A stretch of DNA of 64,000 nucleotides, from positions 30,392 through 94,391 of the IMG/VR virus record IMGVR_UViG_3300032053_000003. One strand, 5' to 3'. Below are positions 14,644-54,252 of the stretch, in pieces; position 1 is the first letter of the stretch, and every line of letters starts with the position of its first letter. Under the pieces are notes generated by a model. The model was not told the DNA's origin, searched no databases, and saw only the letters and a list, made by a program, of their open reading frames with translations. The stretch comes from a virus. A program made the position numbers and the translations under genes.

Positions 14644-14936
14644 TATGGCCTCTCCTCTTCACCATTTGTTGATACTCTGGTGCCTTGCCATACACCTCTG
14701 TAGGGTACTGCTTCACCATCAATGTAATGAAAGTTCTCCTTCCACCTGCCTTGGATTCTAACCCGATCCAGTCCCAGAGTCATGATCATTCTGGACCCTG
14801 TGGATGCAGTCTGCATGCTCTTCAGCCATTTCTCAACCTGACTAATGGTCATCTTCTTAAACAGGCTTTCGATCTGACTAATGGTCGTTTTGGGGTCTTT
14901 TTTGGGGTCTTTTTTGGGGTCTATCTTATCTTCCAT
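14640..14936 (-). CDS. hypothetical protein with KDPKKDPKKDPK tripeptide-like repeat (start moved to Met at 14936)
   Basis: GGAGG SD 7 nt upstream of ATG at 14936; ORF-track start 15011 would overlap upstream gene by 86 nt. Confidence 0.45.
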   Translation of the reverse strand: MEDKIDPKKDPKKDPKTTISQIESLFKKMTISQVEKWLKSMQTASTGSRMIMTLGLDRVRIQGRWKENFHYIDGEAVPYRGVWQGTRVSTNGEEERPY

Positions 14937-16940: not shown

Positions 16941-17150
16941 TTAGTTTTGGTACCATCCTTTTACTTCCTTGAAGAAAAGAATGACGATATTACTTTCTCC
17001 ATTTCTCTCTCGGTTTTCTTTGAATCCCTGGATACCTTCAAGGGAGTCCATATTATATTCGGAAGTATGAGCATTTACTATAATCATATTTCCATTTTCA
17101 ATTTTGGTGTAGACTACAAAGAACGTCTTCATATTGGTTTCTCCAGCCAC
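16941..17150 (-). CDS. hypothetical protein
   Basis: 69-aa ORF. Confidence 0.4.
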   Translation of the reverse strand: MAGETNMKTFFVVYTKIENGNMIIVNAHTSEYNMDSLEGIQGFKENRERNGESNIVILFFKEVKGWYQN

Positions 17151-17470
17151 TTTTTAATAGTAAATCCATGGCATCTTTTGGGAATGCACCAGCATAATAA
17201 GGTGACTTTGTCATACCTGTCAAGGTGACTTTTTATCTGCTTTAGGTAATCCAGTACCTTTGGGTCCCTCAGTCCTACTTCGTAGAACCATACATCATAT
17301 TTTTTACATACCTCATCACGTTGAGCTTCATCATAGAGTACAAAGGGATTACCTACAGGTGTACGTCTATCGATCAAGAAGATCCCATTAACAGGATCAG
17401 GCTTCATCCCATGATGTGCATTGGCTATTATGACTATAAGGTTAGGTTCTTTCATAATTTTCTTATGCAC
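17129..17470 (-). CDS. DUF4326 family protein
   Basis: IDRRTPVGNPF ... LLCWCIPKRCHG matches the DUF4326 pattern (RxTPWGNPF ... CWCxPxxCHG). Confidence 0.6.
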   Translation of the reverse strand: MHKKIMKEPNLIVIIANAHHGMKPDPVNGIFLIDRRTPVGNPFVLYDEAQRDEVCKKYDVWFYEVGLRDPKVLDYLKQIKSHLDRYDKVTLLCWCIPKRCHGFTIKKWLEKPI

Positions 17471-17539
17471 CTGGAGGGACTTGAACCCCCAAACTCCAGC
17501 TTGAAGGGCTGGTGACTTTAACCAATTTGTCTACAGGTG
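17465..17539 (-). tRNA. tRNA, probable anticodon UUC (Glu), unusual C at position 33, no encoded CCA
   Basis: Minus-strand read GCACCTG-TA-GAC-AAATTGGTTAAA-GTC-A-CCAGC-CCTTCAA-GCTGG-AGTTT-GGGGG-TTCAAGT-CCCTC-CAGGTGC-A. Acceptor stem 7/7 bp, anticodon stem 5 bp, T-loop GTTCAAGT. Folded by hand. Confidence 0.6.
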
Positions 17540-17578
17540 CGTGTTGAGTGTAACACAATATTGCTATTAGAATAAGCA

Positions 17579-27903: not shown

Positions 27904-28494
27904 TCACTTCATCTGCTCTAATATCCTCCTTGCCTTTGATAAAGGCCAATCCTTAGATACGTGTGCCTTGAGTGCTTCTTCAAGGTCCAGGTCCTCTTCG
28001 ATAACCAACGTGCCATCTGCTACAGCCTGTTTCAGGGTCTCATAGAACTTGCCTGAGAGGATATCCCCAAACGAGGCTGTTACCGAGTTGTTCCCAGCTT
28101 TCAATTCCATCAGAAACAAACCAGAGTTCTTATAAACCTTCTTGGCTCCTTTGAAGGCTCCATCAATCATCTTGTAAGCCCAATCAAAGAGGTTATCTTT
28201 GATCTTCTTACTAAGGGTCCATACTTGCAAGACCCATTCACGTTGCCGATCATACCTTACCCTGATCCATCCTTTCTTAAGCAGGTCTGTCATAACTTGG
28301 TTTCGGGACTTGCCTTCATCCTCAAGCCTATCCCCATGCTCCTTTTCAATAGCCTTGAGGTCATCTAGGGAGTAACCAAACATCTCAGGGTTTTTCATCA
28401 CATAGGCAATATGAGAGTTAGGAATTTCAACCATCTTTCCATTTGGGGAGATCCAGTATCCTTCTAACATTGTTGTCTTCTCCTCAGCCCACAA
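27904..28494 (-). CDS. hypothetical protein
   Basis: 196-aa ORF. Confidence 0.5.
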   Translation of the reverse strand: MWAEEKTTMLEGYWISPNGKMVEIPNSHIAYVMKNPEMFGYSLDDLKAIEKEHGDRLEDEGKSRNQVMTDLLKKGWIRVRYDRQREWVLQVWTLSKKIKDNLFDWAYKMIDGAFKGAKKVYKNSGLFLMELKAGNNSVTASFGDILSGKFYETLKQAVADGTLVIEEDLDLEEALKAHVSKDWPLSKARRILEQMK

Positions 28495-29107
28495 GCTCTT
28501 GGGGACTCTTTTTAGCCAATAGCATCATGCCCCATACCCCAAAACCTGTGGCAGGATAATTAATAACAGATCCGATATCTTCAAAGATGTACGGTCTTCC
28601 TTTAACGTAGCTGGTGTAGATAGGAGAGTCATAACCCAGCCTTCCTTTACTGAAGACTGACTTCTCACCCTTGCCGATCCAGCTGTCTTTGTTGTCACTG
28701 GTTCCTACCAGGTAAGCTTGGGCTTTGTTGTCAATGGCACCCTTGGGGATGAACAAGATGCTGTCTTGGTCGAATTCAACACCGAGATGGATAAGATCCT
28801 TTTCCAGGGTCCCCTGATCCTTGGCATCCACAATAAAGTAGCTCTCTTCCTGTACAGGCTCACCACCCTCAGGATAGGTACCGTGGATACGAGTAAGACT
28901 GTATCCCTTGGACATGAGCTTTGATGCCAGAAGGGTATTACGAGCCTGTTTCTCTTTTTTGCTGTAAGGCTGGGTGTTCCCCTCATCCTTATACCTACGG
29001 AAGGCAGTCATTGCACCACAGTCATGTGCCTGATTGTGTTTCCACAACCTTGACAGGCTGGATTCGTTGACTTCCATGCTATCAATCATTTCCTTTGCTT
29101 TACTCAT
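28484..29107 (-). CDS. hypothetical protein carrying the N-terminal MSKAKEMIDSMEV tag
   Basis: 207-aa ORF; TATAGG-containing motif 30 nt upstream. Confidence 0.5.
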   Translation of the reverse strand: MSKAKEMIDSMEVNESSLSRLWKHNQAHDCGAMTAFRRYKDEGNTQPYSKKEKQARNTLLASKLMSKGYSLTRIHGTYPEGGEPVQEESYFIVDAKDQGTLEKDLIHLGVEFDQDSILFIPKGAIDNKAQAYLVGTSDNKDSWIGKGEKSVFSKGRLGYDSPIYTSYVKGRPYIFEDIGSVINYPATGFGVWGMMLLAKKSPQELVG

Positions 29108-29156: not shown

Positions 29157-30353
29157 TTAACCAATCTCAATCAAATACTTGATACTGCACTGGTCGGCAT
29201 CATAAACGATCAGTTCATCATTACGAAGATCAACTCCACCCTCACAAAACAGGGAGTCATACTGTCCCTTGGCCTGGAGAGTGCTGTGGTTACAATTAGA
29301 CATCCATGACTCTCTGCTCTTGGTTCTGTACTCAATGCCTGAATTTACTTCATACAGAGCCAGAAAAGCTTTTCCATCCCTGCCACCTGCCCAATAAGAA
29401 CCAGTGATAGAGGTATAACCCATGCTCTTGGCTGCTTTGTTAGCAAAATATACACCGTTTCCAAACATGGCACCAGTAAGAACAACACCTGAAGGTCTGA
29501 TTAAGAGACCAGTCTTGAGGATGTTCAACCAGTTTTCGTTCCTGGAGCCATGCCACAATAACTTCGTCCAATGCTTATGGGATCTGGTTTTCCTGACTTC
29601 AAGTTTCTTCTGGGTACCATGGTTGACAACCTTGAAAGCCCTCTTGAACTTACCTGCATCAGAACCCATCATCTTTTTGATGGTATCGATATCTTCATTA
29701 GCAGCATGCTCTACTTTGATACCAAGGGCATCTTCAAGAGTCTGGGCACCACTGGTACCATCACTGCCCTGCATGGACACCTGCTGTCTCATGACATCGA
29801 TATTATCCTGTTCTTGGGCAATGAACTTCTTAGCCTCTTTCCTCTGATCTGTAACGTCTCCTGACTGCTCAAGCAGATGATATTGGGTCTTCTTCATTCT
29901 ACGAGGAATGACTGTGTACAACTTGAGGAGCATAGTATTGATTTCATACCCATTCATGTTACAGATATTCAAGGAAAGCTCATCAATGATCCTCTGAGCC
30001 TCATCTACCTGGAGCATGGTGACTTCATTGGCAGACACTGTATATGTTTCGGCAATGTGCTGCTTACTATACTTTTGGAGGGTGTTAAGGAGTTCACGGA
30101 TCTGGGGATCAGTCATATCCTTGAAAGAGGTAGCAACCTTGTCAACCCTGAGAGCCGTGATGTCTTTGTAGCCTTTACGGATCTTTTCGTTGTACTTGGA
30201 GTCCCACTGCTTCATAGGGTAAACCTTTGTAGAAGCTGTGACACCGATCCTGCCCCAAGTGGCTAACCAGTTGCCGTTATCCTGATCTTCCATGTAGTAA
30301 TATTTGTTGTTATTGACATCAGAAACATTAATGAGTTCAACTTTTCGTCCCAT
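29157..30353 (-). CDS. poly(ADP-ribose) polymerase-like ADP-ribosyltransferase (WGR domain + PARP catalytic domain)
   Basis: WGR motif WLATWGRIGV; catalytic blocks LLWHGSRNENWLNILKTGL, GAMFGNGVYFANKAAKS, NDELIVYDADQCSIKYLIEI give an H-Y-E triad. Confidence 0.8.
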   Translation of the reverse strand: MGRKVELINVSDVNNNKYYYMEDQDNGNWLATWGRIGVTASTKVYPMKQWDSKYNEKIRKGYKDITALRVDKVATSFKDMTDPQIRELLNTLQKYSKQHIAETYTVSANEVTMLQVDEAQRIIDELSLNICNMNGYEINTMLLKLYTVIPRRMKKTQYHLLEQSGDVTDQRKEAKKFIAQEQDNIDVMRQQVSMQGSDGTSGAQTLEDALGIKVEHAANEDIDTIKKMMGSDAGKFKRAFKVVNHGTQKKLEVRKTRSHKHWTKLLWHGSRNENWLNILKTGLLIRPSGVVLTGAMFGNGVYFANKAAKSMGYTSITGSYWAGGRDGKAFLALYEVNSGIEYRTKSRESWMSNCNHSTLQAKGQYDSLFCEGGVDLRNDELIVYDADQCSIKYLIEIG

Positions 30354-30371
30354 TTTAGTTAGCTCCCTATC

Positions 30372-30405
30372 CCTATAACGGTTTTCACCTTAGCAGTTTG
30401 TACAA
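30372..30405 (-). promoter_or_regulatory. promoter-like motif A copy 3
   Basis: CCTATAACGGTTTTCACCTTAGCAGTTTGTACAA, identical to copy 1 over 33 nt; upstream of PARP gene. Confidence 0.5.
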
Positions 30406-31194
30406 TTATTTTTTAAGTTTCCAAGAGTTCTTAAAGCCTTTGAATTTCTTGGGTACTACAGTATCTCTGGGTCCCTTTGGCAGTCTCGGTAGAGGTGCAG
30501 TAGGAGTAAATAACTCCAGCTGTTCCAGCTGCTTTACTAAGTGGGAAATAGAAGGATCTCCCTCTGATATCATCTTTTTTATAATAGGTGATGGGCTTAA
30601 GTCAATCTTAGTGCAATGTTTTAAATAAAGACCCAGCCTAACCATATTGACATCCACATGTATCTCTTTCATAAGTTTCCTCTGGTCTTTCAGCCACTGT
30701 TTGTCTTTCTTGTCTGTGTACTTCTTATCCAGTATCTTTTTATCAGCAGAGGATACCGTTAACAGCTCACGATAGATAAAAGTCTGTAAATACCTCTTAC
30801 GAGATGGGTATCTGAGCCTGTTAAGAGCTAGTTTTTCCTTCTGCCTTATTCTCTCCCTGGTGACATTTTGTATTATACCTACCTCTTCTAGTGTCCTTTC
30901 ATCACCTTCATCAAGACCAAATCTCTGGATGATAGTCATAGCCAGGCTGGGAGGTATAGTCTCAAGTACATCAACTATTCCTATAAACAACTCCTTAGCC
31001 ATTAACAGTTCTTCAGGTGTAGGGTCATCAGAGGCCACATGGTCCAGTATGGACATGGAGTCATAGGTTTGATCAATGAGTTCATTCCACAGATCTCTCT
31101 GTAATAGCCAGGCATAGAGACCCTGCTCCCTTCTTATCTTATCCTTCTCTTTGCCCCATCCGAGTCTTTTATTATCAAACTTATCATTCTTCAT
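30406..31194 (-). CDS. RNA polymerase sigma factor, sigma-70 family (regions 3/4) with C-terminal extension
   Basis: LAMTIIQRFGLDEGDERTLEEVGIIQNVTRERIRQKEKLALNRLR is a region-4 HTH; upstream ELLMAKELFIGIVDVLETIPP is region-3-like. Confidence 0.7.
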   Translation of the reverse strand: MKNDKFDNKRLGWGKEKDKIRREQGLYAWLLQRDLWNELIDQTYDSMSILDHVASDDPTPEELLMAKELFIGIVDVLETIPPSLAMTIIQRFGLDEGDERTLEEVGIIQNVTRERIRQKEKLALNRLRYPSRKRYLQTFIYRELLTVSSADKKILDKKYTDKKDKQWLKDQRKLMKEIHVDVNMVRLGLYLKHCTKIDLSPSPIIKKMISEGDPSISHLVKQLEQLELFTPTAPLPRLPKGPRDTVVPKKFKGFKNSWKLKK

Positions 31195-31537: not shown

Positions 31538-31570
31538 CCTATAACGGTTTTCACCCTACTTGTTTGTACA
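31538..31570 (-). promoter_or_regulatory. promoter-like motif A copy 4 (diverged)
   Basis: CCTATAACGGTTTTCACCCTACTTGTTTGTACAA. Confidence 0.45.
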
Positions 31571-31593
31571 AAATAATTGTATTTGTGGATGAT

Positions 31594-34298: not shown

Positions 34299-35759
34299 AT
34301 GTCTAAGTTTATTCCAGTATCTGGACCTTTAACCACTACAAGCCCTACTATCGATTCTCTTGATAATGTGAGGGTTAATGGTGTTCCAGGATATTACCCT
34401 GCTCTACTTGAAGGTGATGCTATCTTCGTTATTACTCCTGATGAAAGAACTTTCACCTATCGGGTAGAAATTAGATCCCCCAAGCCACCTGAAGATGTTC
34501 CTAATGTAATTTACCCTAAGTATTCCTCTGGTAATACTCCATATACTGGCAATATTTGTTTTATTCTTGCTGGTACTTCGGGTGGTACAGGCTCTTCTGG
34601 AACGAGTGGTTCATCTGGAATGGGTACATCAGGTTCTTCGGGCACCTCATTTTCTGGAATTACATCAGGGACTAGTGGTAGCTCAGGGGAGGGTGCAGAT
34701 GGAACTTCTGGTACCTCTGGCAATGGGTCTTCAGGGACTTCTGGGTCTTCAGGATCAAGGGGATCTAGTGGCACTAGTGGATCGTCTGGTATTGGCTCTT
34801 CTGGTACTTCTGGCTCTTCTGGTCTTTCGGGAATAGATGGTTATGATGGTACATCTGGCACCAGTGGCTCAAAAGGTGATGTAGGGTCCAGTGGAACCAG
34901 TGGGTCTTCAGGTTCAAGTGGTTCAAGGGGCACCTCAGGCACTAGTGGTTTAAGCGGTTCCTCAGGCACCAGTGGTACAGGATCTTCGGGGACTAGTGGT
35001 ACAGGATCTTCGGGGACATCAGGATTAAGTGGTTCTTCAGGGACTTCAAGTGTTGGCTCCTCTGGTACATCAGGTAATAGTGGGTCTTCTGGCACCAGTG
35101 GTTCAAGAGGCACTAGTGGGTCTTCAGGAACATCTGGATTAGGGTCTTCAGGAACCAGTGGCTTTGGTACTTCTGGTACGTCAGGCTTTGGAACTTCAGG
35201 TACATCAGGGTCTGGGACTTCAGGAACCTCTGGATCAGGTACCAGTGGAACCTCTGGAGTCAATGGTACTTCTGGGACAAGTAGTACTGGCTCTTCAGGA
35301 ACTAGTGGTTTAAGTGGGTCAAGTGGAACATCTGGTTTTGGTTCATCTGGTACATCAGGTCTCTCACCTCTTAATTATTATAATATTGACTCCACTACTG
35401 GTTATGAAACTCAGGTTTGCGCCACAGGTTCAGGGGTTACAATAAGTAAAGTAGGAAGTCTTTACACTTGGAGTATACCTTCAGGGGTACGTCTCATTTC
35501 TTGTAGCATAAGAGTTCCTGGAAGTTCACTCACTAGTGGTCAGATAATAATGGACTACTCTACTTTGGGGACTATGACCTGGACTAACAGGTTACTGGTA
35601 GGACCCATAAAGGCTTGGAGAGAGGACTCTGGTGCTCAGGTTACTATAACAGTCCAAGATCCAGATATTGAGCTGAATAGATGGTACCTTAGTGGAATGA
35701 GTGTCACTACTACATCATATGATTTGCTCATTTATTTCCATCAGAGAGTAACCTCATAA
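34299..35759 (+). CDS. Ser/Thr-rich Gly-X-Y (collagen-like) repeat fibre protein with C-terminal globular domain
   Basis: about 270 residues of GSS/GTS triplets (GTSGSSGTSGS...) then a non-repetitive C-terminal domain; AGGAGA SD. Confidence 0.7.
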   Translation: MSKFIPVSGPLTTTSPTIDSLDNVRVNGVPGYYPALLEGDAIFVITPDERTFTYRVEIRSPKPPEDVPNVIYPKYSSGNTPYTGNICFILAGTSGGTGSSGTSGSSGMGTSGSSGTSFSGITSGTSGSSGEGADGTSGTSGNGSSGTSGSSGSRGSSGTSGSSGIGSSGTSGSSGLSGIDGYDGTSGTSGSKGDVGSSGTSGSSGSSGSRGTSGTSGLSGSSGTSGTGSSGTSGTGSSGTSGLSGSSGTSSVGSSGTSGNSGSSGTSGSRGTSGSSGTSGLGSSGTSGFGTSGTSGFGTSGTSGSGTSGTSGSGTSGTSGVNGTSGTSSTGSSGTSGLSGSSGTSGFGSSGTSGLSPLNYYNIDSTTGYETQVCATGSGVTISKVGSLYTWSIPSGVRLISCSIRVPGSSLTSGQIIMDYSTLGTMTWTNRLLVGPIKAWREDSGAQVTITVQDPDIELNRWYLSGMSVTTTSYDLLIYFHQRVTS

Positions 35760-35771
35760 GGGGGATATGGC

Positions 35772-38700
35772 ATGTCATTAGCATTTGCTGCCAGGTTAGT
35801 AATAAATAATGTCGTAGACCTGGGGTCCAATATTTATGAAATAACAGGTAGGGTTTACGATTTTTCTATTTCTGGATATCTTGCTTCAGATGTTCAACTT
35901 GGGGATGTTATAATAGATGAGAATTCAGAGACTGGTGTAGTTAATAGGTGGAAGATTACTAATATAGTTTTAGCCAGTATTCGTAATCTTGTTTGTCATG
36001 TCGTATGGGACGATGAAGGTATAGAAGACCCAGCTGGTCCTCAGATTTGCCCAGCTGCTATTTGTAGTACATCTATTAATGTAAAGCTGGCTGAAGTACC
36101 TACTAGTACGTATTCCTTGCTTAGTGAGACCATCCTAACCAGAATTAATAATATCAATAATAGAGTCTTTATTGATCCTGCTATTACAGCAGGAACTAGT
36201 GGGTCCAGTGGTACATCTGGAGAGGGAGGAGGAACCAGTGGTTCTGGGTCGTCCTCTGGGACTAGTGGGATTTCTGGAGCCGATGGCTCCAGTGGTACTA
36301 GTGGTATTGGTCTTGATGGGTCTTCAGGTACGAGTGGAGCCGATGGGTCAAGTGGAACTAGTGGAGCCGATGGGTCAAGTGGAACCAGTGGAGCCGATGG
36401 AGTTGATGGGTCTTCAGGAACCAGTGGTATTGGTCTTGATGGTACATCAGGAACAAGTGGTGATTGGAGAAATGGGGTATATAACGAAATAATATCTGCT
36501 GATTCTGATGATTGTTATGTTACTCCAAATGATTCTGCAATTGATATAGGTCCTAGCCTAGTGGCTATGGGGAAGGGGGAGTTTAGTTTAGGTGCTGGTT
36601 TCAGATGGAATGGTTTGAATATACCGCAAGGTTCTCTTATTACAACTGCTTATGTGTCTTTAACCTCTGCTGATGATATTTCTAATGAAGACTGTATTAT
36701 TCAAATAAAAGGTGAAGCATCTGATAATGCAATTACTTTTTCTACCTATGAAGATTATGCTGCTCGATCTTTAACTGCAGCATCAGTAGCTTTTATTTTT
36801 CCTCCATCTACAGGAGATGTTGTTTATACTACTCCTGAATTAAAAACAATTATTCAAGAGATTGTGAATAGATCTAGTTGGCAAGTAGGGAATTCTATTG
36901 TTTTGTTTTTTGATGATAATGGTTCAACAGCATATGCACAACGAAATGTGTGTGATTTTGGGGCAAATCCTACAAAAGCTGCTAAACTTTATTTGCAATG
37001 GGACTCTTCTAATGGGCCTCAAGGATTACCTGGTGTTGATGGCACCTCAGGTTCAAGTGGGTCTTCAGGTACCAGTGGAGCCGATGGAGCTGATGGGTCA
37101 AGTGGAACCAGTGGGATCGATGGAGCTGATGGGTCTTCGGGAACCAGTGGTATTGGTCTTGATGGGTCTTCAGGAACCAGTGGAGTTGATGGAGCCGATG
37201 GGTCAAGTGGTACATCAGGTTTTGGGTCTTCAGGGACCAGTGGTATTGGTCTTGATGGGTCTTCAGGTACGAGTGGAGCCGATGGCTCCAGTGGGACCAG
37301 TGGTATTGGTCTTGATGGGTCTTCAGGTACGAGTGGAGCCGATGGGTCTTCAGGTACGAGTGGAGCCGATGGGTCAAGTGGAACTAGTGGAGCCGATGGG
37401 TCAAGTGGGACTTCAGGATCTTCAGGTACTTCAGGAGTAGATGCTCAGGCTACTAATTCTGTCTATGTTGATAGGGCTAGGGGTGACACATACACTCCTA
37501 CAGGAAGTGTAACCAAACCTTTTAAGACCCTCCAGGCTGCATTTGATTATATCGGACAGCCAACATTACCAGCTGACTTTAATGATGCTGCTAAATTCGG
37601 TTATAATGTTTATGTAGCTCCTGGGATATATACTGAGACACTAACTATTCCAGCTCGTCCTTCCATTAATGTATTTGTTGATGGTGTAAAAATAGTAGGT
37701 AATGTCACTTGGAATTTTGATGGCACTACGTTAACAGGTGCTTTAACACATCCAGAATTAGCTTTTATTGGTGATAATTTCCGTAATGCCTACAATACAG
37801 ATGGGCATCCTTTGACATGTACTATTGTAGGAAACCTTACAATAACACAGATTGCTGGTAGTTCAGGGAGTGGTGCTAGAGGACCCATTCTTATGCTTCG
37901 TGGTGCAGGTGTTGTTGGTAACATTACTTATAATACTAGTGGTACAGCAACAGGTTATAAATCTTTTACACAAATGCGTGATAGTATCTATACTGGTACT
38001 TTATCTACTGTGGGAGCAGGAGTTTCTAATTTACTGTACATTAGCAATTGTGATACCTCATCTTCCTATGCTGTAGGAGCCATTTCTGGAAATGTTTCTT
38101 TATATGTCCTTAGGAATGTACGGTTAGTTGGTACAGTAGTTTCTACTTCTAATAATGGTGGTAGGTGGTTTAATGTAACTTTTGGTGCTGTTGCTCATGA
38201 TTTTACAAATTGTTCTGGTACATTTAGTTGTGATGCCAATTCATATTCTAGTTTTTATGCTAATGTAACCAATAAGGGAGCAGGGGTATTCACGCTGATA
38301 GATGAAGCTAAAGGTGTGAAGAATGATTCAAATGTAACTGGTGTTTCTGTTAAAGATGCATTGAATAATCTGTTAGCTTTGGTAGGTACAAGTGGAACTT
38401 CAGGTACCTCTGGTTCCAGAGGTGTTGATGGATCAAGTGGGACTTCAGGGGCTGGGTTACCTGGAACTTCAGGTACCAGTGGAGCTGATGGGTCAAGTGG
38501 AACCAGTGGAGCCGATGGAGCTGATGGGTCTTCGGGAACCAGTGGGATCGATGGAGCTGATGGGTCTTCGGGAACCAGTGGTATTGGTCTTGATGGGTCT
38601 TCAGGAACCAGTGGAGTTGATGGAGCCGATGGAGCTGATGGGTCTTCGGGAACCAGTGGTATTGGTCTTGATGGGTCTTCAGGAACCAGTGGTATTGGTC

Positions 38701-40511
38701 TTGATGGGTCTTCAGGAACCAGTGGTATTGGTCTTGATGGGTCTTCAGGTACGAGTGGTATTGGTCTTGATGGGTCTTCAGGTACGAGTGGTATTGGTCT
38801 TGATGGGTCTTCAGGTACGAGTGGTATTGGTCTTGATGGGTCTTCAGGTACGAGTGGTATTGGTCTTGATGGGTCTTCAGGAACCAGTGGAGCTGATGGA
38901 GCCGATGGGTCTTCAGGAACCAGTGGAGCTGATGGGTCTTCAGGAACCAGTGGATTTGGAACTTCTGGTACGTCAGGAATTTCAGGCTCCAGTGGCACCT
39001 CAGCTACTTCTGGAGGAGGGGCAGGGGATGGTACTATTCTTCTTGGAGAACTTCCTTCAGGACAGATCTATGATGGTTTGATAACCCTTACGGAGACTGA
39101 TCAGGTGAATGAATCTATCAATTGGATTAATGAGATGCTTATTCTGATCTCCCCTGCAAAGCCTGAGATGCTCACAGGGGATGCTCTTGTTCTTACTGGT
39201 ACTGCTAAATATAGTGCTAAGGTGCCTTCTGGTCTTGTTGCAGCTTGGTATCTTGGTGGTGTGTCAGCTGGGGATACCATCACTGATTACGTTACAGACA
39301 ATACATTCCGTCTGACAACACCATCAACTTCAACAGAGTTTTATAACGGGATGTATACAGCTCCTGGTGGGACTTTGAATCTGTATGCAGGTGCCTCTAT
39401 TATCGATACCATCTCTACTGCAACAGCTGGCTCTTCTACGATGTTGACAGTATCTGATGTTGCAACTTACAACTCTATCTGGAGCAAAGCTAATGCTTAT
39501 GCAGATATCACTCAGACTGCTGAGGGCTATCTGTATTACAATTTTAATCACTCACTTGCTGGTGTAACAAACAATCTTGTAGTCAGGTATGATGATGTTC
39601 ATTCCACTCCTTCATTCTCATCAGCTCTTTCCATTGCTGAGAATACACCAGTCTGGAAGTATTTGTCAGGCATTCAGTATTATGGTCAGGGAACTACTCT
39701 AAATATTTCTTATACAGCTGCTGCTGGTATATTTACAAAATGTTATCATCCAACAGCAGTGGCAGTTATTTCCCAGAATGCTGTTGCCTTTGCAACCTTC
39801 AACTACAATCCTGCATCAATACCTGCTTATAACGATAACTGGATAGTGACTGGTTACACAGTGACATTGAGTGTGGCAAATAAGTCTTCTAATTCACCTA
39901 CTATTTCAGTAACCTTACAGAAGCCCACAGGTACCCAGGTTGTCTCTACTGCAAGCCTTGCTAAGAAACTTTGTACTTATGGTAACTATTCCACAACAAC
40001 TATAGAGTATTTCTTTGATGAGGCTTACAGGCTTGAGATAGGTACTGACACTGCTTGGACTTCATCAGCTACTTTGATAGATGACAATGCTCAGGTTCGT
40101 AATGGCTTTTTGCAGTGGCCTGATTCAGGGGATTACCCTACTGGGTTCTCAGGTGATCAGGAGTACCAGAGAAAGTTTACAAAAGTATCAGCATCCACTG
40201 GTACTTTAACCTTCTCAGGTATTACTTATTCTCAGATTTCTGCTTACGGTACTGGGGACCTCAATATTCTCCTTTATCTTGATACTGATGCCATATGGTT
40301 TGATCTTGGTCAGCTTGTTGGTTTTGGTGGGAATGGTTCTACACGAGCTTTGGCTATAGGTGCTCAGGGTTCAGGTTCAGGTGGACTTGTTAATTGGTCA
40401 ATAGGTACTTACAGTACAGGACCTTCTGGTTCAGGAAACTTCGGTAAATATAGGCTTGTCATTATCTTTAGGAACACCAACAGAACAATTACCCAGATAG
40501 TGTCTGCATAA
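35772..40511 (+). CDS. giant fibre/tailspike protein (1579 aa): collagen-like GXY blocks + right-handed beta-helix (pectate-lyase-fold-like) domain + C-terminal domains
   Basis: Multiple GSSGTSG[AI]DG blocks. The segment KPFKTLQAAFDYIGQPT...YNVYVAPGIYTETLTIPARPSINVFVDGVKIVGNV matches the N-terminal cap of pectin-lyase-fold depolymerases. Confidence 0.7.
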   Translation: MSLAFAARLVINNVVDLGSNIYEITGRVYDFSISGYLASDVQLGDVIIDENSETGVVNRWKITNIVLASIRNLVCHVVWDDEGIEDPAGPQICPAAICSTSINVKLAEVPTSTYSLLSETILTRINNINNRVFIDPAITAGTSGSSGTSGEGGGTSGSGSSSGTSGISGADGSSGTSGIGLDGSSGTSGADGSSGTSGADGSSGTSGADGVDGSSGTSGIGLDGTSGTSGDWRNGVYNEIISADSDDCYVTPNDSAIDIGPSLVAMGKGEFSLGAGFRWNGLNIPQGSLITTAYVSLTSADDISNEDCIIQIKGEASDNAITFSTYEDYAARSLTAASVAFIFPPSTGDVVYTTPELKTIIQEIVNRSSWQVGNSIVLFFDDNGSTAYAQRNVCDFGANPTKAAKLYLQWDSSNGPQGLPGVDGTSGSSGSSGTSGADGADGSSGTSGIDGADGSSGTSGIGLDGSSGTSGVDGADGSSGTSGFGSSGTSGIGLDGSSGTSGADGSSGTSGIGLDGSSGTSGADGSSGTSGADGSSGTSGADGSSGTSGSSGTSGVDAQATNSVYVDRARGDTYTPTGSVTKPFKTLQAAFDYIGQPTLPADFNDAAKFGYNVYVAPGIYTETLTIPARPSINVFVDGVKIVGNVTWNFDGTTLTGALTHPELAFIGDNFRNAYNTDGHPLTCTIVGNLTITQIAGSSGSGARGPILMLRGAGVVGNITYNTSGTATGYKSFTQMRDSIYTGTLSTVGAGVSNLLYISNCDTSSSYAVGAISGNVSLYVLRNVRLVGTVVSTSNNGGRWFNVTFGAVAHDFTNCSGTFSCDANSYSSFYANVTNKGAGVFTLIDEAKGVKNDSNVTGVSVKDALNNLLALVGTSGTSGTSGSRGVDGSSGTSGAGLPGTSGTSGADGSSGTSGADGADGSSGTSGIDGADGSSGTSGIGLDGSSGTSGVDGADGADGSSGTSGIGLDGSSGTSGIGLDGSSGTSGIGLDGSSGTSGIGLDGSSGTSGIGLDGSSGTSGIGLDGSSGTSGIGLDGSSGTSGADGADGSSGTSGADGSSGTSGFGTSGTSGISGSSGTSATSGGGAGDGTILLGELPSGQIYDGLITLTETDQVNESINWINEMLILISPAKPEMLTGDALVLTGTAKYSAKVPSGLVAAWYLGGVSAGDTITDYVTDNTFRLTTPSTSTEFYNGMYTAPGGTLNLYAGASIIDTISTATAGSSTMLTVSDVATYNSIWSKANAYADITQTAEGYLYYNFNHSLAGVTNNLVVRYDDVHSTPSFSSALSIAENTPVWKYLSGIQYYGQGTTLNISYTAAAGIFTKCYHPTAVAVISQNAVAFATFNYNPASIPAYNDNWIVTGYTVTLSVANKSSNSPTISVTLQKPTGTQVVSTASLAKKLCTYGNYSTTTIEYFFDEAYRLEIGTDTAWTSSATLIDDNAQVRNGFLQWPDSGDYPTGFSGDQEYQRKFTKVSASTGTLTFSGITYSQISAYGTGDLNILLYLDTDAIWFDLGQLVGFGGNGSTRALAIGAQGSGSGGLVNWSIGTYSTGPSGSGNFGKYRLVIIFRNTNRTITQIVSA
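38658..38888 (+). repeat. perfect 33-bp x 7 coding tandem repeat (GIGLDGSSGTS G units)
   Basis: GGTATTGGTCTTGATGGGTCTTCAGG(A/T)AC(C/G)AGT repeated 7 times head to tail. Confidence 0.9.
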
Positions 40512-40512
40512 T

Positions 40513-40845
40513 ATGAGTAAGGCATACCAACTTCTTTTTGAAATATTGAACCCTCACTACCATCTTCGTTTACGAGAGGGGATAGAGGTTAGGAAGGTTC
40601 TTAAATCTACTGATAATGGTAGTTGGGTAGAGAAGGAAGAGATCTGGGGTCTTAATGGTAATACAGATGATGACACCCCAATGATTACTGCATACACTCC
40701 TTCTGGTGATTATCTCGGTGATCCTGATTTTGCTAAAATGTTAGTTAAGAAAGGGATCACTCAGTTTGAGAATACTGAGCCAGATCACTGTGTTTGCTCC
40801 ATAGGTTTTAATCCTGAGAAAAGAATGGAGTGGGTGGAGTCATAG
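40513..40845 (+). CDS. MSKA-tag family protein (MSKAYQLLFEILNP...)
   Basis: 110-aa ORF starting 1 nt after the fibre stop. Confidence 0.5.
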   Translation: MSKAYQLLFEILNPHYHLRLREGIEVRKVLKSTDNGSWVEKEEIWGLNGNTDDDTPMITAYTPSGDYLGDPDFAKMLVKKGITQFENTEPDHCVCSIGFNPEKRMEWVES

Positions 40846-40886
40846 GGCTATATTTTCTTTTGGTATAGGATCAAAAGTTAAAAAAG

Positions 40887-41273
40887 GTGACTGTGGCTAC
40901 ACTCCTGAAAAAGGTGAGTGGGAAGCAAAAACCATTGAAGATGCCAAACTTATGGCTACAGAGTTTGCAAAAGGAGTGTCGTGATATGAGTAAAGCTATT
41001 GGTCTTCTTATGTTGCTTGAGGATGCATCTATTGTAGATAAGTACAAAGACTCCTTAGCCAAACTTAATTCACCCAAAAGAAAAGAGATTATTAAGGCTG
41101 CTTTTGCCAAGGGTGAGAAGTTTGCTGTGAAGCAGGGCTTGATGAAGATGAACAAAGAAGAGCCACTGGACCCTAAAGAGTATAATGCTCTTCTGGACTA
41201 TATGAGTGACCTTGAAAGAAAACCAACTGCTGTTAAGTCAAAGAGTTTTGCAAGTCGTTTCCTGGCCTTTTAA
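40887..41273 (+). CDS. hypothetical protein
   Basis: 128-aa ORF. Confidence 0.45.
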   Translation: MTVATLLKKVSGKQKPLKMPNLWLQSLQKECRDMSKAIGLLMLLEDASIVDKYKDSLAKLNSPKRKEIIKAAFAKGEKFAVKQGLMKMNKEEPLDPKEYNALLDYMSDLERKPTAVKSKSFASRFLAF

Positions 41274-41293
41274 CTAGATCCTGTGAGGCAATA

Positions 41294-41494
41294 ATGAATC
41301 GTTCAAAAAGACTCTTGGTTCTTCTGCGTGAAGAGAACGAAGATAAAGATGGGTGGGTAGGAGTGGATCTTGATTCAACCTTAGCCTTTTATGATGAGTG
41401 GAAAGGTAATGACTATATAGGGAAGCCAATTCCTGAGATGGTCAAGAAAGTTAAGAGTCTTTTGGATCAGGGTAAGCAAGTTAAGATCATATGA
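41294..41494 (+). CDS. hypothetical protein
   Basis: 66-aa ORF. Confidence 0.4.
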   Translation: MNRSKRLLVLLREENEDKDGWVGVDLDSTLAFYDEWKGNDYIGKPIPEMVKKVKSLLDQGKQVKII

Positions 41495-41682
41495 CTGCAC
41501 GAGTTCATCCTGACAATGAAGATGTAGAAGGTATCAGGGAACTTATTCAGAAATGGTGTGAAGAACATCTTGGTCAGGTTCTCCCTGTTACCCATGAGAA
41601 AGACCACAAAATGATTGAACTTTGGGATGACCGATGCAGACAAGTTATTAAAAATACTGGCAGGTTCATTGATGAGGATTAA
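41491..41682 (+). CDS. hypothetical protein
   Basis: 63-aa ORF. Confidence 0.4.
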   Translation: MTARVHPDNEDVEGIRELIQKWCEEHLGQVLPVTHEKDHKMIELWDDRCRQVIKNTGRFIDED

Positions 41683-41720
41683 TCTCTATAGAATTTACCC
41701 TCATATGGAGGATTTTTTAA

Positions 41721-44700
41721 ATGTGGACTAAGGAAGATCGAAGCTTCAAGACCCTGATTAATCGTAGGACAACTGATTCTACAGGTAAATATTGGTATAA
41801 TGAAGTTTCTGATTCTACGTTAAATGTCCATATCAGTGAGATATGGTCTGACACTATCAATGAATCTCCTGCCCAGGCAGTTATTGATGGTGTTGCAGAG
41901 TTAAGAACTCTTTTCACCTTAACTGAAGATACCACAGTACCTCTTCAGTACTGTTACTACGCATACTCTGGTGATAGGCTTAAAGACTGGATTTCTACAA
42001 AATATGGTAGTGGGTACACTGTTCACCTTTTTGACAATAACAATGTAGAGATAGGTCCTACAAATGCTTGTCAGTGGTTTTTTGACAATCAAACTGGAAT
42101 TTTAACCTTCAATGCTTCTGTTGCTGCTTTTGCCAAGCCTTTTAAGATTACTGGTTATAGGTACATAGGAGCCAAAGGTGTGGGCACCTCAGGTGCTGGC
42201 ACATCTGGTACATCGGGTATCAATGGGTCAAGTGGTACATCTGGTATAGGTTTTTCTGGCACCTCAGGTACATCTGGTGTGGGCACTTCTGGAACTTCAA
42301 GTATTGGTGTCGATGGCTCTTCAGGTACATCAGGTCTTAGTGGCTCAAGTGGTACTTCGGGACCAGGGGGGTCAAGTGGAACCTCAGGTTTCAGTGGTAC
42401 AGCAGGACAGGGATTCAGTTGGGAGAGTCAGTGGACAGCAAGTAAAGTTTACCAAGCTTATGATGTTGTAAAGACTGATTACAATTCTTACGTTTGTCAC
42501 TTGGGTCATACATCAACTTATAATGATCAACCTGGTGTAGGTCCTAATTGGGGTAATTACTGGGATACTTTTACTGAGGGTGGAATAGGATCTTCAGGTA
42601 CATCTGGATCAGGATCTTCAGGAACCAGTGGTTCTGGCTCCAGTGGCTCAAGTGGGTCTTCGGGCACAAGTGGCTCTTCAGGCTCTTCAGGAACCTCAGG
42701 TTCAAGTGGATCTTCAGGGACTGGTTTTTACTGGGATGACATGTGGCAGTATGATCATGCCTATGGAGTAAATGCTGTAGTTGAAAGTCTTAAAAGTTGC
42801 TACATTTGTAAGATATCTCATATCTCAACTTATGAAGATGAGCCAGGTGTTGATGCCTCTGGTCATGACTGGGAAACCTATTGGGATCTTATGGTTCCTG
42901 GTGGTGTTGGGTCTTCAGGTACGAGTGGGTCCAGTGGTTCAAGTGGTTCAAATGGTTCTTCAGGATCAAGTGGGACTTCAGGCTCTAGTGGTAAAGGTTT
43001 CATATGGGGAGGGGAATGGTCTACTTATCGTACTTTTTATACTTATAATGTAGTATCTCATTTGCATCATGGTACTTTTGTTTGTATTCAAGATCATATA
43101 TCTGATCCTATGTATCATGCTTATGAGCCTATGGGTAACGAAGATTGGCAGTCTTACTGGCAACCTTTTGCATTAAGTGGTACATCAGGTTCATCGGGTG
43201 CTAATGGGTCTTCAGGAACCTCAGGCTCAAGTGGAAAAGGATTCACATGGACAGGTGCTTGGATCATAAGTCATGTATATGATGAGACTCAAATGGTGGA
43301 GAATGGTTCAGACAGTTATGTCTGTACTGTATCCCATACTTCAGATGCCCTCAATGAACCTGGTAATGAACTTACAGGTAATGATTGGGAAGATTACTGG
43401 GATCGTTTCCTTCCTGGTGGGAATCCTGGATCTTCTGGCTCTAGTGGCTCAAGTGGTACAAGTGGCTCCAGTGGGTCATCAGGAACCTCAGGCTCCAGTG
43501 GTACAGGTGGATTTAAGTGGGCAGGTGGTTGGTATGAATATCCAAGTCATCTTTATCAGGTTCATGATGTAGTATCTCATAATCCGTGGGGAACTTTCGT
43601 ATGTATTCAGCAGCATCTTTCTGAATATAATCATGAGCCAGAGGTAGATGGTGACTGGCAGTCATACTGGCAGTATTTTGCTCCTGCTGGCACATCGGGT
43701 TCATCAGGTGTTAATGGGTCTTCAGGTACAAGTGGAGTTTCACCTGCATTTACTAGTATTCTCAGTCAGGATCTTGATGCCAATGAATGGAGTATTGTCC
43801 ATCTTAATTCTGTATCATGGAATTCAGAGTACAACTATGGTGATGCTGGAACTTCAGCTACTATTAATTGGACAGAAGGTCAGATCCAGAAGGTAATTCT
43901 TACTAAGCCTAGTATCATAAATTTTAGTAATCCTGTAGGTGTTGGGTATTATCTGATCAGGTTGGTTACTGGTGGCTATAATGCAGTATTTCCAAGTGTG
44001 ATTTGGGCAGGTGGTTTAACTCCTACTTTTGGTGCTGAGGCTGTAAACCTAGTTTACATTTATTTTAATGGTGTTACCTATTATGGTCATGTTTGGGGTC
44101 AGGGAGGCACTTCAGGCACGAGTGGGTCTTGTACGTTTACCAGTACTCTTGAGACTGATCTTGATGCAAATAATCACAATATTATTCATCTTAACTCAGT
44201 TTGTTATAATGCAGAGTATAATTATGGGGACTCAGGCTCGATAGCTACTATAGATTGGACAGAAGGTCAGTTACAGAAGATAGATCTCACTGATGATTGT
44301 GAGATTTCTCTCTCTAATCCTAAGGGTGTTGGATATTATCTGATCAGGTTGGTTACAGGACTTGGTTCAGGTTATGGTTACAATGCAACATTCCCTGATG
44401 TAGTTTGGACGGGTCCTACTCCTGTTTTTGGTGATGATCTTGAGAATGTAATCTATTTTTACTTCAACGGTATTAATTATTATGGTCATGTTTGGGGTAC
44501 AGGTGGGACTGGTGGAACCAGTGGTTCTGGCACCAGTGGGACTTCAGGTGTATCTGGGTCTTCAGGGACTAGTGGGGAGGCTGGAACCTCTGGAGTAGCT
44601 GGCACCAGTGGGACTTCTGGTTCCAATGGTTCTTCAGGGACTTCAGGCTTGATTTCAACTTATCAGTACTCAAATACATATTCTGCTTCTACATCCTGGG

Positions 44701-44870: not shown

Positions 44871-44955
44871 AATTACCTTACTCTTGGATGGTCTAGGGGT
44901 AAGTCACTTAATACCAAACGCATAATTGGTATCTATCAAATAACGAGGTGAAATA

Positions 44956-46413: not shown

Positions 46414-46434
46414 GTAGTCAACATTTGAAGTACA

Positions 46435-46482
46435 GTGGTGGAGTCTTCGGACTCCACCACATATTCGTCTTTATTCATTCTT
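46435..46482 (+). terminator. rho-independent terminator
   Basis: 11-bp perfect stem GTGGTGGAGTC-TTCG-GACTCCACCAC followed by T-rich tract ATATTCGTCTTTATTCATTCTT. Confidence 0.6.
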
Positions 46483-46502
46483 AAACTTCAGAGGAGTACA
46501 TA

Positions 46503-50879: not shown

Positions 50880-50911
50880 TCTGAATGTAATCTGTAATTT
50901 CTGAGGTATCT

Positions 50912-51535: not shown

Positions 51536-51552
51536 ACAGGAGGTAAGACCAA

Positions 51553-52382: not shown

Positions 52383-52406
52383 CCAACAGCTCTAACCTCC
52401 TGGTAT

Positions 52407-52440
52407 AGAGGGAGTCTGTCTTTGGGCTCCCTCTTTGTAC
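52407..52440 (+). terminator. candidate terminator hairpin
   Basis: AGAGGGAGTC-TGTCTTTG-GGCTCCCTCT 10-bp stem (one G-U) followed by TTTG. Confidence 0.4.
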
Positions 52441-52546
52441 CTAAACTTAGAGGTTGAAAAACTTGATATCATTGCTTTAGGGTATTAACATTATGGGGCA
52501 AGAGTGTAGAGAAGAGTGTGATATTCCTATAGATAAGGGGGGTAGT

Positions 52547-54211: not shown

Positions 54212-54252
54212 GCAGTAGAGTAGTATCACATAAACACTACCAAATGTGAGGG

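Follow-up and report, generated by a model that had tools for sequence, protein, structure and literature searches.

A compact WGR-PARP with an intact catalytic triad in phage DNA: a candidate break-activated ADP-ribosyltransferase under purifying selection

PARP1 and PARP2 have a central place among DNA-damage sensors and serve as targets for cancer drugs. The gene considered here, which resembles theirs, lies in a 64-kb stretch of viral DNA, the whole of which was analysed and is hereafter called the window; from the letters alone it had been predicted to code for a PARP with an N-terminal WGR domain. The reading favored in what follows, with a probability of about 0.6, is that it encodes a functional minimal ADP-ribosyltransferase of the PARP1/2/3 type, which would be break-activated, accessory and individually transcribed, in the non-structural arm of a genome of jumbo-phage lineage.

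The predicted 398-aa product corresponds to an ORF that runs from ATG to stop over exactly 29157..30353 on the minus strand, which the original prediction had left unstated; the plus-strand frame over the same interval has many stops, and the GC content of the gene shows no anomaly (Table 1). The motifs on which the prediction drew are all found in it: WLATWGRIGV (aa 29–38), HGS (268–270), GVYFAN (300–305) and NDELIVYD (378–385). No DNA near-identical to the window was found among GenBank phages.

Table 1. Coordinates of the PARP gene, its domains and the other features of the window discussed in the text
Feature	Position in window	Strand	Basis and details
PARP gene (WGR–helical regulatory domain–ART), 398 aa	29157..30353	-	ORF, Pfam, PHROG, PDB profile, AlphaFold, Foldseek, dN/dS
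WGR domain, aa 1–70	30144..30353	-	Pfam WGR aa 8–65; four-stranded sheet (4–46), helix 47–59, short strand
Linker and helical (PARP_reg/HD-like) domain, aa 71–205	29739..30143	-	Family profile, AlphaFold; helices 83–103, 113–132, 135–148, 167–199
ART catalytic domain, aa 206–398	29157..29738	-	PF00644; H268, Y302, E380; also S270, M296, K309, Y313
Shine-Dalgarno-like GGGAG	30363..30367	-	9 nt ahead of PARP ATG, read from sequence
Promoter/operator-like element TTGTACAAAC-N4-AAGGTGAAAACCGTTATAGG	30372..30405	-	Directly upstream of PARP; shared TTATAGGGAT core continues to 30369
Other copies of the element	31538–31571, 20811–20844, 19116–19149	-	20-mer core search
NADAR domain protein	4137..4565	-	PF08719 6.4e-28; PADLOC PDC-M42C 1.6e-13
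RtcB RNA ligase	10300..11391	-	PF01139 1.5e-53
DUF4326 protein	17129..17455	-	PF14216 2.8e-15; adjoins tRNA-Glu 17466..17540

The catalytic domain is matched by PF00644 over aa 236–397 with E=1.9e-23 and 83.5 bits, where the cutoff is 26.7, and its motifs align to LLWHGSR, GKGIYFAD and YNEYIVYN of PARP2. Across a family alignment of 45 sequences, H268, G269, S270, Y302, K309, Y313 and E380 are invariant and M296 is at least 90% conserved; the H-Y-E triad is thus intact, as had been proposed, with H268, Y302 and E380 aligned to the PARP2 HGS, GIYFAD and NEYIVYN. M296, K309 and Y313 presumably correspond to the acceptor-site residues M890, K903 and Y907 of PARP1, and Asn378 is taken to fall at the position of Tyr986 (LRNDE aligned to LLYNE).

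At the N-terminus the anticipated WGR domain is also present: PF05406 passes marginally over aa 8–65 (E=1.6e-4; 22.2 bits, the cutoff being 22.0), and further support comes from the family profile, which aligns to the PARP2 WGR, from the AlphaFold model and from Foldseek matches to WGR-HD-ART chains. A phmmer alignment with PARP2 places, without gaps, N14, N15, N16, K17 and Y19 opposite N127, N128, N129, K130 and Y132, and W33 and R35 opposite W151 and R153; N127, N129, K130, Y132, W151 and R153 of PARP2 are DNA-contact or activation residues (PMC6294510). In the 45-member alignment G34 and R35 are invariant, and conservation reaches 90% or more at N14–N16, K17 and Y19. By its position, Y62 may be the counterpart of Y201, which binds the 5'-phosphate in PARP2. 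Judging from the alignments and the model, the phage WGR is some 40 aa shorter than that of PARP2.

Between the two lies a helical domain for which the Pfam scan did not report PF02877. Bacterial PARPs behave alike, their helical domain often being missed by Pfam yet visible in models (PMC5966428). The family profile spans the helical domain of PARP1 and PARP2 (profile positions about 80–210 in the PDB profile search), setting its motif LYTviPRkm (LYTVIPRRM in the window) opposite the PARP2 FYTRIPHDF; the AlphaFold model has a helical bundle at 83–199, and the relatives P0021 and P0078 have precomputed PF02877 matches.

Sequence profiles, the AlphaFold model and Foldseek all group the phage protein with PARP1 and PARP2 and not with the mono-ART toxins. 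Searched against the PDB, the family profile matched PARP2 (5.5e-30), PARP1 (6.5e-28), PARP3 (2e-14), PARP4 (1.5e-11) and also tankyrase; the search returned PARPs only, in keeping with the prediction of a bona fide PARP in a phage. PHROG 23333 is a full-length match (2e-53), and the Pfam, PDB and PHROG searches yielded no match to mono-ART toxins. The model (pLDDT 87.3, pTM 0.81) finds its best Foldseek matches in PARP1 and PARP2 WGR-HD-ART chains bound to DNA breaks (2e-19, TMq about 0.65), in alignments of about 465–475 columns at ~18–21% identity. The matches to GH123_cat, FliS and other Pfam families had E>7e-4, fell under their cutoffs and were ignored.

The phage protein shares with human PARP2, and with PARP1 and PARP3, the DNA-break-activated clade-1 PARPs, both the WGR–helical–ART order and the H-Y-E triad, and with PARP2 the NNNKYY, WGR, helical 'YTxIP' and catalytic-strand 'NExIVY' motifs. 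It differs in size, having 398 aa where the WGR-HD-ART chains of PARP2 in the PDB have about 490, and it has neither a disordered N-terminus nor zinc fingers nor BRCT in the alignments and the model. The partner HPF1 and the chromatin context are not known in bacteria. An identity as a mono-ART toxin, the outcome that would have overturned the original prediction, as a diphtheria-toxin-like ART or as a T4 Alt/Mod-type enzyme of the R-S-E clade was rejected on the H-Y-E triad and on the lack of a toxin-type profile match. T4 Alt, ModA and ModB are mono-transferases of that clade, without a WGR or helical domain and partly packaged in the virion (PMC9503650); as phage NAD+-dependent modifiers they are analogous in function only, with no family-level homology to the phage PARP.

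The protein belongs to a large prokaryotic and phage family, known as 'PART'. Compact WGR-PARPs fall into no fewer than 508 clusters (50% identity, E<=1e-30). Relatives are carried by 318 viral contigs of IMG/VR and by many genomes of Bacteroidota, and the family is concentrated in big phages and Bacteroidota. The supposition that bona fide PARPs are rare in phages can be retained for isolates, where just 16 of 50,697 GenBank phage records carry one, but not for metagenomes with their 318 contigs, nor are such genes new to the literature: a paper of 2014 deals with phage PARPs (PMC4245714), one of 2021 with those of jumbo phages (PMC7824862), and one of 2022 counts PARP among the viral ART families encountered most often (PMC9503650). 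They had already been annotated in Cellulophaga phage phi4:1 (gp031), Klebsiella phage vB_KpM_FBKp34 (gp111, annotated as WGR, regulatory and catalytic), Xanthomonas phage XacN1, Stenotrophomonas phages CM1 and RAS14 and the uncultured huge phage LR756500, the carriers being mostly large or jumbo phages. These annotated PARPs are full-length homologues (PHROG 23333; tblastn, 23–38% identity across 91–99% of the query) but divergent in sequence, and the closest GenBank phage match is 37.6% identical. Catalogues have included phage PARPs since 2014, so that the window gene adds one more member to a kind already known; no biochemistry of any phage PARP, this one included, was found in the literature.

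The closest cellular homologues are from Bacteroidota (Saprospiraceae, Cytophagales and Spirosomataceae; 38–46% identity). SD-like sites on 56% of genes, the share in the window, are unusual for Bacteroidota, so a Bacteroidota host deduced from the relatives of the PARP was dropped as unsafe. Bacterial PARPs, namely those of Herpetosiphon aurantiacus, Clostridioides difficile CD160 and the Cytophagales 'clade 1.1', have the same compact architecture as the phage protein. The Herpetosiphon enzyme depends on DNA to be active and produces PAR in vitro, and that of C. difficile is active (PMC4245714, PMC8120803). The characterised bacterial PARPs come with a cognate PARG (PMC8120803), whereas none is seen in the 64-kb window. 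A gene for a conserved ~104-aa partner lies directly downstream on the same strand in 18 of 41 lineages and in most Bacteroidota loci, but is missing at the window PARP; among the six-frame ORFs of the window and of the related loci L001, L003 and L006, its HMM found nothing better than E=0.2. As to what this partner is, a PDB profile search reached a best E of 0.65, and Pfam yielded just sub-threshold arginine-repressor matches, in 3 of 15 members.

The genomic setting is that of a phage, having a plus arm with tail fibres, a tRNA and synteny to a 247-kb contig, the nearest relative being Ga0501914_00005 with 246,837 bp, and the whole genome is probably about 250 kb, of which 64 kb are visible. 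Against an 83%-identical orthologue (L003), the gene has a dN/dS of 0.077, a sign of purifying selection. The WGR, helical and ART domains give 0.064, 0.102 and 0.065 respectively, and therefore the sensor and regulatory parts have been preserved as carefully as the catalytic one. The gene is nonetheless accessory and dispensable: in the syntenic 247-kb relative (L006) it has decayed, with the start changed from ATG to ATA and ~68 codons deleted, and its immediate neighbours vary among relatives. In the window these are a downstream SAM-lyase-like gene and an adjoining gene with sigma region 4; the SAM-lyase-like, 196-aa and sigma-region-4 neighbours have no homologue beside the PARP in L001, L003, L006 or any other compared locus. 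A conserved partner is absent from the lineage of the window PARP.

Elsewhere the surroundings are of a different kind. Within 6 kb of the PARP, independent viral lineages carry RlaP (6), RNA ligases (5, 3 and 1), an ATP-dependent DNA ligase (4) or a CCA-adding enzyme (3), and gp031 of phi4:1 is flanked by a tRNA nucleotidyltransferase and, one gene off, a DNA ligase. The neighbours are a ligase and a CCA-adding enzyme in phi4:1 and a Macro domain in one metagenomic lineage, as against the SAM-lyase-like and sigma-region-4 genes of the window. This ligase and repair neighbourhood, missing in the window's own lineage, could mirror the general composition of early regions in large phages. Macro accompanies the PARP in two lineages. 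In the window, no Macro or PARG was found among the 42 ORFs scanned with Pfam, which took in part of the plus arm, and the Macro HMM reached a best E of 1.6 against all six-frame ORFs of the 64 kb. A complete reversible PAR system consists of a PARP plus a PARG or Macro eraser (Perina et al. 2014).

As regards expression, the PARP is headed by one of 4 copies in the window of a 37-nt element that would, from its sequence and placement, act as a promoter or operator. With <=3 mismatches allowed, its 20-mer core is found 4 times, whereas 100 shuffles yielded none, and all 4 copies are on the minus strand, each directly 5' of a minus-strand start codon. Outside the window, an 18-mer of the core had 0 IMG/VR matches; 14 matches in metagenome contigs were set aside as chance, since neither blastn nor tblastx relates these contigs to the window. 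Scans for sigma-70 promoters and intrinsic terminators around the gene found 9 where 8.2 were expected, no more than chance. Of the 77 window genes, 56% have an SD-like core ahead of them, the background being 11.5%.

By homology with PARP1/2/3, the favored enzyme would work as follows: the WGR domain would bind a nucleic-acid break, be it a nick or an end; the signal would pass to the helical domain, freeing the NAD+ site from its block; and the ART domain would then put ADP-ribose, probably in chains, on itself and, close to the break, on proteins and/or on DNA ends that carry a phosphate. As to its use, the leading guess has the enzyme handle or mark DNA with breaks or nicks, arising from the breakdown of the host chromosome or as intermediates of phage replication and repair, rather than serve as a general modifier of RNA polymerase.

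It is possible, if on the unlikely side, that the enzyme is instead a PARP3-like mono-ADP-ribosyltransferase that marks a specific target, such as a 5'-phosphorylated DNA end. The H-Y-E triad is necessary but not sufficient for polymer formation, as PARP3 and PARP4 retain it and yet are mono-transferases. Along the same lines, Asn378 at the Tyr986 position might be brought up, though this does not imply an effect on activity, as might the lack of a visible PARG or Macro in the 64 kb, and PARP3 is known to MARylate 5'-phosphates at nicks (PMC8385414). Against this, the profile scores PARP2 and PARP1 (1e-30 to 1e-28) far above PARP3 and PARP4, the residues taken to match the PARP1 acceptor site are all conserved, and both bacterial PARPs tested produce polymer (PMC8120803).

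Less probable is a DNA-independent host-takeover enzyme on the lines of T4 Alt, ModA and ModB, which would modify translation factors or the RNA polymerase of the host shortly after infection. Such a role has been suggested for jumbo-phage PARPs (Iyer et al. 2021, PMC7824862), and the adjoining sigma-region-4 gene and the non-structural nature of the arm would accord with it. However, that neighbour is not kept in relatives, the T4 enzymes belong to the R-S-E and not the H-Y-E clade, and selection on the WGR and helical domains as strong as on the catalytic one, together with conserved DNA-contact residues, would be unexpected if DNA played no part. Moreover, the phi4:1 record, which marks structural proteins on the basis of MS/MS proteomics, does not count the PARP among them, and this disfavors an Alt-like packaging.

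Similarly doubtful is the broader proposal of an ADP-ribosylation-centred toolkit for takeover or counter-defence, in which PARP, NADAR, DUF4326 and RtcB would act as one coordinated set, the PARP writing marks and the NADAR reversing either these or those of DarT-type systems. NADAR, RtcB and DUF4326 are indeed encoded in the window, as predicted, by their Pfam matches. The four genes share one strand of one arm, and NADAR, Macro, DUF4326 and ARTs form an NAD+/ADP-ribose theme of jumbo phages (Iyer et al., PMC7824862; PMC9503650). However, they do not form a cluster: NADAR, RtcB and DUF4326 are 25, 18 and 12 kb from the PARP, with dozens of unrelated ORFs in between, and none of them has the 37-nt element ahead of it. 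In the PARP flanks (6–10 kb) of 166 other loci, NADAR occurs 0 times, RtcB 2 and DUF4326 once; being almost never near a PARP elsewhere, they leave the integrated toolkit unsupported. The tested NADARs are specific for guanine-linked, and not thymidine-linked, ADP-ribose on DNA (PMC11825919), which gives no reason for pairing NADAR with PARP, and nothing ties NADARs to PARP products; the eraser that phages do pair with PARP is the Macro domain, not found in the 64-kb window. The part of the original prediction that had NADAR reversing DarT-type defence is borne out for phage NADARs, which counter DarTG1 (PMC11825919); as this has been shown by experiment already, it is not a new idea.

A further, equally improbable variant keeps the break sensor and makes DNA its main substrate: a stand-alone sensor of nucleic-acid ends that would attach ADP-ribose to nicks or to phosphorylated ends, an activity that PARP2 and PARP3 show in vitro. 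If true, the modification could serve as a cap that protects intermediates of phage replication or packaging from exonucleases of the host and from end-dependent defences or, alternatively, tag the fragmented host chromosome and block its repair; the DNA ligase, RNA ligase, RlaP and CCA-adding neighbours of other phage PARPs would then represent a shared end-processing pathway, and the whole a DNA-end-modifying counter-defence without described phage precedent.

Very unlikely is an NAD+-consuming weapon, whereby hyperactivation on breaks would drain NAD+ or kill the cell, in superinfection exclusion or inter-phage competition, or else a captured bacterial defence gene. PARP1 hyperactivation does deplete NAD+ in eukaryotes, and the closest cellular relatives are chromosomal Bacteroidota genes paired with the conserved small partner, a two-gene layout typical of conflict systems. 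However, this partner is absent in the window lineage, no immunity or antitoxin gene was found beside the PARP, PADLOC v2 has no family matching the PARP at E<=0.01 and no model for the ~104-aa partner, and the phage itself would be harmed by the loss of NAD+. That the window copy is a decaying, non-functional gene gained horizontally is hardly tenable: the decayed copy in L006 and the variable region, with neighbours differing in every relative, would fit, but the full-length ORF with all invariant family residues, dN/dS of ~0.08, its own SD and promoter-like element and an unremarkable GC content disfavor a pseudogene.

Returning to the break-activated PARP1/2/3-type transferase favored here, the window contributes another intact and clearly selected phage PARP, and the state of knowledge is unchanged by the finding. 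The size of the family, the accessory status of its genes and their lineage-specific companions, be it the 104-aa partner, Macro or the ligase and RNA-repair genes, guide the choice of experimental systems.

The PARP of the window is a minimal clade-1-type PARP encoded by one uninterrupted reading frame, with the opposite, plus-strand frame over the same interval carrying stops throughout. The motifs quoted in the original prediction are all found in its product, and the observation of a PARP with a WGR domain is confirmed by Pfam, which recovers a PF00644-type catalytic domain at residues 236–397 (E=1.9e-23; 83.5 bits vs. a cutoff of 26.7) and a WGR domain at residues 8–65 that lies barely above threshold (22.2 bits vs. 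22.0), as well as by a full-length match to phrog_23333 (2e-53) in PHROGs. When the protein was searched against the PDB with phmmer, PARP1, PARP2, PARP3 and PARP4 were essentially the sole matches; a marginal match to a ribosomal protein (E=0.0097) was treated as noise. A family profile built from 45 aligned members and searched against the same database likewise retrieved PARP2 (5.5e-30), PARP1 (6.5e-28), PARP3 (2e-14), PARP4 (1.5e-11) and tankyrase (~7e-6), with no toxin-type ART among its matches. Its alignments to these PARPs span the WGR domain (profile positions 13–79), the helical regulatory domain with its "YTxIP" motif (LYTviPRkm in the family consensus, LYTVIPRRM in the window, FYTRIPHDF in PARP2) and the catalytic strand (LrnnEyivYn vs. 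LNYNEYIVYN). Thus, the possibility that the catalytic domain belongs to an ART clade lacking the glutamate is contradicted by both the profile matches and the invariance of E380.

The same architecture emerges from a confident AlphaFold2 model based on the family alignment (pLDDT 87.3, pTM 0.81), with a four-stranded sheet and a helix at residues 4–59, a helical bundle at 83–199 and an alpha/beta domain at 212–397. The top Foldseek matches of this model are the WGR-HD-ART chains of DNA-break-bound human PARP1 (8g0h, 4dqy, 7s6m) and PARP2 (6x0l), in alignments of ~465–475 columns that take in the entire protein. Across the 45 sequences H268, G269, S270, Y302, K309, Y313, E380, G34 and R35 are invariant, and conservation reaches 90% or more at N14–N16, K17, Y19 and M296. 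In the ungapped phmmer alignment, N14/N16/K17/Y19 correspond to N127/N129/K130/Y132 of PARP2 and W33/R35 to W151/R153, i.e., to residues that Obaji et al. (PMC6294510) assigned to break binding and the activation relay. Comparison with an 83%-identical orthologue (locus L003) gives a dN/dS of 0.077 overall and of 0.064, 0.102 and 0.065 for the WGR, helical and ART domains, respectively, values that are approximate because dS is 1.8 and near saturation. The sensor and regulatory parts are therefore kept as strongly as the catalytic part. The GC content of the gene is unremarkable.

Such PARPs are already known from phages, and the window copy is a clean further example. Perina et al. (2014) listed them in Aeromonas phage Aeh1 and Cellulophaga phi4:1 (PMC4245714), Iyer et al. 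(2021) noted them in jumbo phages (PMC7824862), and Iyer et al. (2022) ranked PART/PARP as one of the commonest ART families of viruses (PMC9503650); our literature search turned up no experimental work on a phage PARP. A word-indexed protein search returned 2,715 relatives at E<=1e-5, including over 120 full-length ones (~400 aa) with E<1e-99. An exhaustive search of 1.84 billion representatives recovered 3,327 clusters at E<=1e-3, of which 508 reach E<=1e-30; nearly all of the best 150 are 380–430 aa long. Relatives are present on 318 viral contigs of IMG/VR (among the best 80, 34 are of at least 100 kb and 10 of at least 200 kb) and on 213 stretches of a one-genome-per-species collection, in which the best are almost all from Bacteroidota at 38–46% identity. 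A 425,361-bp contig (loci L029 and L152, with the PARP at matching coordinates) is listed both as a viral genome of IMG/VR and, in the species collection, under a "Candidatus Pacearchaeota archaeon" MAG; a huge phage that ended up in an archaeal bin is the probable explanation. Among GenBank phages, 16 records carry a relative, several annotated as poly(ADP-ribose) polymerase, and the existing annotation of gp111 of Klebsiella phage FBKp34 covers all three domains. Culturable phages with annotated PARPs are better experimental entry points than the window copy.

The window is phage DNA, with collagen-like tail fibres on its plus arm, a strand polarity that flips at ~31.5 kb and a single tRNA gene, tRNA-Glu(UUC). 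The run of large plus-strand proteins is an unusually large tail-fibre arsenal; the three of its products that were scanned (486, 1049 and 485 aa) all gave strong collagen-like tail-fibre matches. The lineage can be taken as jumbo-sized since the 246,837-bp JGI metagenomic contig Ga0501914_00005 (L006) shares synteny with the window to either side of the PARP. Of the 77 predicted genes of the window, 56% are preceded by SD-like cores, vs. an 11.5% background. This frequency is unusual for Bacteroidota, and the Bacteroidota affinity of the PARP is therefore unfit for host assignment. Two minus-strand ORFs with PHROG "transposase" matches and no match in Pfam may be mobile-element or TnpB-like genes within the phage.

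Coordinates of features in the window
Feature	Position	Strand	Details
PARP	29157..30353	minus	single ATG-to-stop ORF, 398 aa
Copies of the 37-nt element	31538-31571, 30372-30405, 20811-20844, 19116-19149	minus	20-nt core, <=3 mismatches
Sigma-70 region-4 protein	30406..31194	minus	262 aa; PF04545 2e-9; phrog_351 sigma factor
SAM-lyase-family gene	28484..29107	minus	PF23780 3.2e-9, above cutoff; phrog_30877; directly downstream of PARP
DUF4326 gene	17129..17455	minus	start ~10 nt downstream of tRNA-Glu(UUC) gene (17466..17540)
NADAR gene	4137..4565	minus	
Mom-family DNA-modification gene	3138..4073	minus	PF25680 2.8e-11; phrog_1384 1e-17
Transposase-like ORF	171..1262	minus	phrog_1157 1e-10
Transposase-like ORF	14926..16230	minus	phrog_4285 8e-18
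Large-protein run	34299..58713	plus	486, 1579, 1049, 485, 1458, 572, 1486 aa

The three immediate neighbours of the PARP are a SAM-lyase-family protein, which could be an anti-restriction enzyme of the phage T3 type, a 196-aa orphan and a sigma-70 region-4 protein. Region 4 is the only sigma part of the last, which also matches the C-terminal end of the PADLOC MzaA model (5e-12). In the related loci L001, L003 and L006, the PARP is flanked by no counterpart of any of the three. In L006 the PARP itself (9740-10741) has decayed: its start codon is ATA, it lacks ~68 codons from the end of the WGR into the start of the helical domain, and gene calling yields just a 246-aa C-terminal product. Given this decay and the unshared neighbours, the PARP is an accessory gene, located in a variable region and without a conserved partner in its lineage.

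Directly upstream of the PARP, whose ATG is preceded at 9 nt by a GGGAG site, lies a 37-nt element, TTGTACAAAC-N4-AAGGTGAAAACCGTTATAGGGAT, laid out as a palindrome, TTGTACAA, followed by GGTGAAAACCGTTATAGG; the stop codon of the sigma-70 region-4 gene abuts it. Its 20-nt core has four copies in the window vs. none in 100 shuffles, each directly 5' of a minus-strand start codon, and the genes behind them encode the 79-aa first product of the arm, the PARP, a 440-aa protein and an 89-aa Cys-rich protein. Weaker TTATAGGGAT-type copies stand ahead of the SAM-lyase-family gene and gene 6103..6432. No verbatim copy of the element was found in the other loci compared; a related CGTATATAG core precedes the PARP in L003 and L006. 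The element probably serves as a promoter or operator specific to the phage and defines a small regulon including the PARP; on this candidate reading, the PARP would have a transcription signal of its own.

The original prediction had further joined the PARP to NADAR, RtcB and DUF4326 in an ADP-ribosylation toolkit. These genes are real (6.4e-28, 1.5e-53 and 2.8e-15, respectively), so that the prediction is supported in part, but no evidence emerged for an integrated module: the three are 25, 18 and 12 kb away from the PARP, lack its upstream element, and occur in 0, 2 and 1 of the PARP flanks of 166 other loci. The toolkit may still hold as a loose genomic theme, as in the NAD+-centred conflict scheme of Iyer et al. 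(2021), which takes in NADAR, Macro and DUF4326 (PMC7824862). All phage NADARs tested so far strip ADP-ribose from guanine in DNA, defeating DarTG1, and are inactive on thymidine-linked ADP-ribose (PMC11825919). By analogy, the window NADAR is plausibly an anti-DarT1 factor by itself, a function already published for phage NADARs, and nothing links it to the PARP. The Mom-family gene lies directly downstream of it, placing a DNA base-modification enzyme beside a remover of ADP-ribose from DNA bases.

To survey neighbours across the family, ORFs up to 6 kb from the PARP were clustered for the window, the context loci, 80 viral loci and 80 bacterial loci, with associations counted per PARP lineage (60% identity; 41 lineages). 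Only one neighbour is broadly conserved, a ~104-aa protein encoded directly downstream on the same strand in 64 of the 166 compared loci and 18 of the 41 lineages, on both Bacteroidota chromosomes and viral contigs. Its members (~85–105 aa; e.g., L104 7993-8307) share the core TTTLEVKxxLRxxGYxAxQxxVS...NGxFRxY, and some longer ones also contain a WGR-like stretch. The protein has no significant match in Pfam, the PDB or PADLOC, and our literature search found no description of it. A Macro domain gene (PF01661, 8.5e-20) directly precedes the PARP in the same orientation (median spacing -37 nt) in 15 loci but only two lineages—L133 (10560-11012) and 14 loci of one viral lineage (including L034, L041, L043 and L044)—an arrangement that looks like a writer-eraser pair. 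Within 6 kb are also found RlaP in six independent viral lineages, RNA ligases in five, three and one, an ATP-dependent DNA ligase in four and a CCA-adding enzyme in three; Cellulophaga phi4:1 has a tRNA nucleotidyltransferase on one side of the PARP and a DNA ligase one gene away on the other. None of these neighbours is present in the 64-kb window. The association with ligase and repair genes is only suggestive, and the early-region gene content of large phages may instead underlie the counts.

Homology to PARP1–3 and to two assayed bacterial PARPs, one of which is DNA-dependent (PMC8120803), points to a four-step mechanism: the WGR domain would bind a nick or end, the signal would pass to the helical domain and lift its autoinhibition, and the ART domain would then use NAD+ on itself, on nearby proteins and possibly on phosphorylated DNA ends. 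The architecture, the residue conservation and the selection are shown by the present data; break dependence, chain length and targets are what we infer by such analogy, and sequence alone cannot tell poly- from mono-ADP-ribosylation. That the PARP caps DNA ends as a counter-defence appears unlikely, and a weapon draining NAD+, or a relic gene, is likewise among the less likely readings. Given the conserved sensor domain and the repair-gene neighbourhoods of other lineages, we lean toward a role in handling broken or nicked DNA during infection rather than a T4-Alt-like modification of RNA polymerase.
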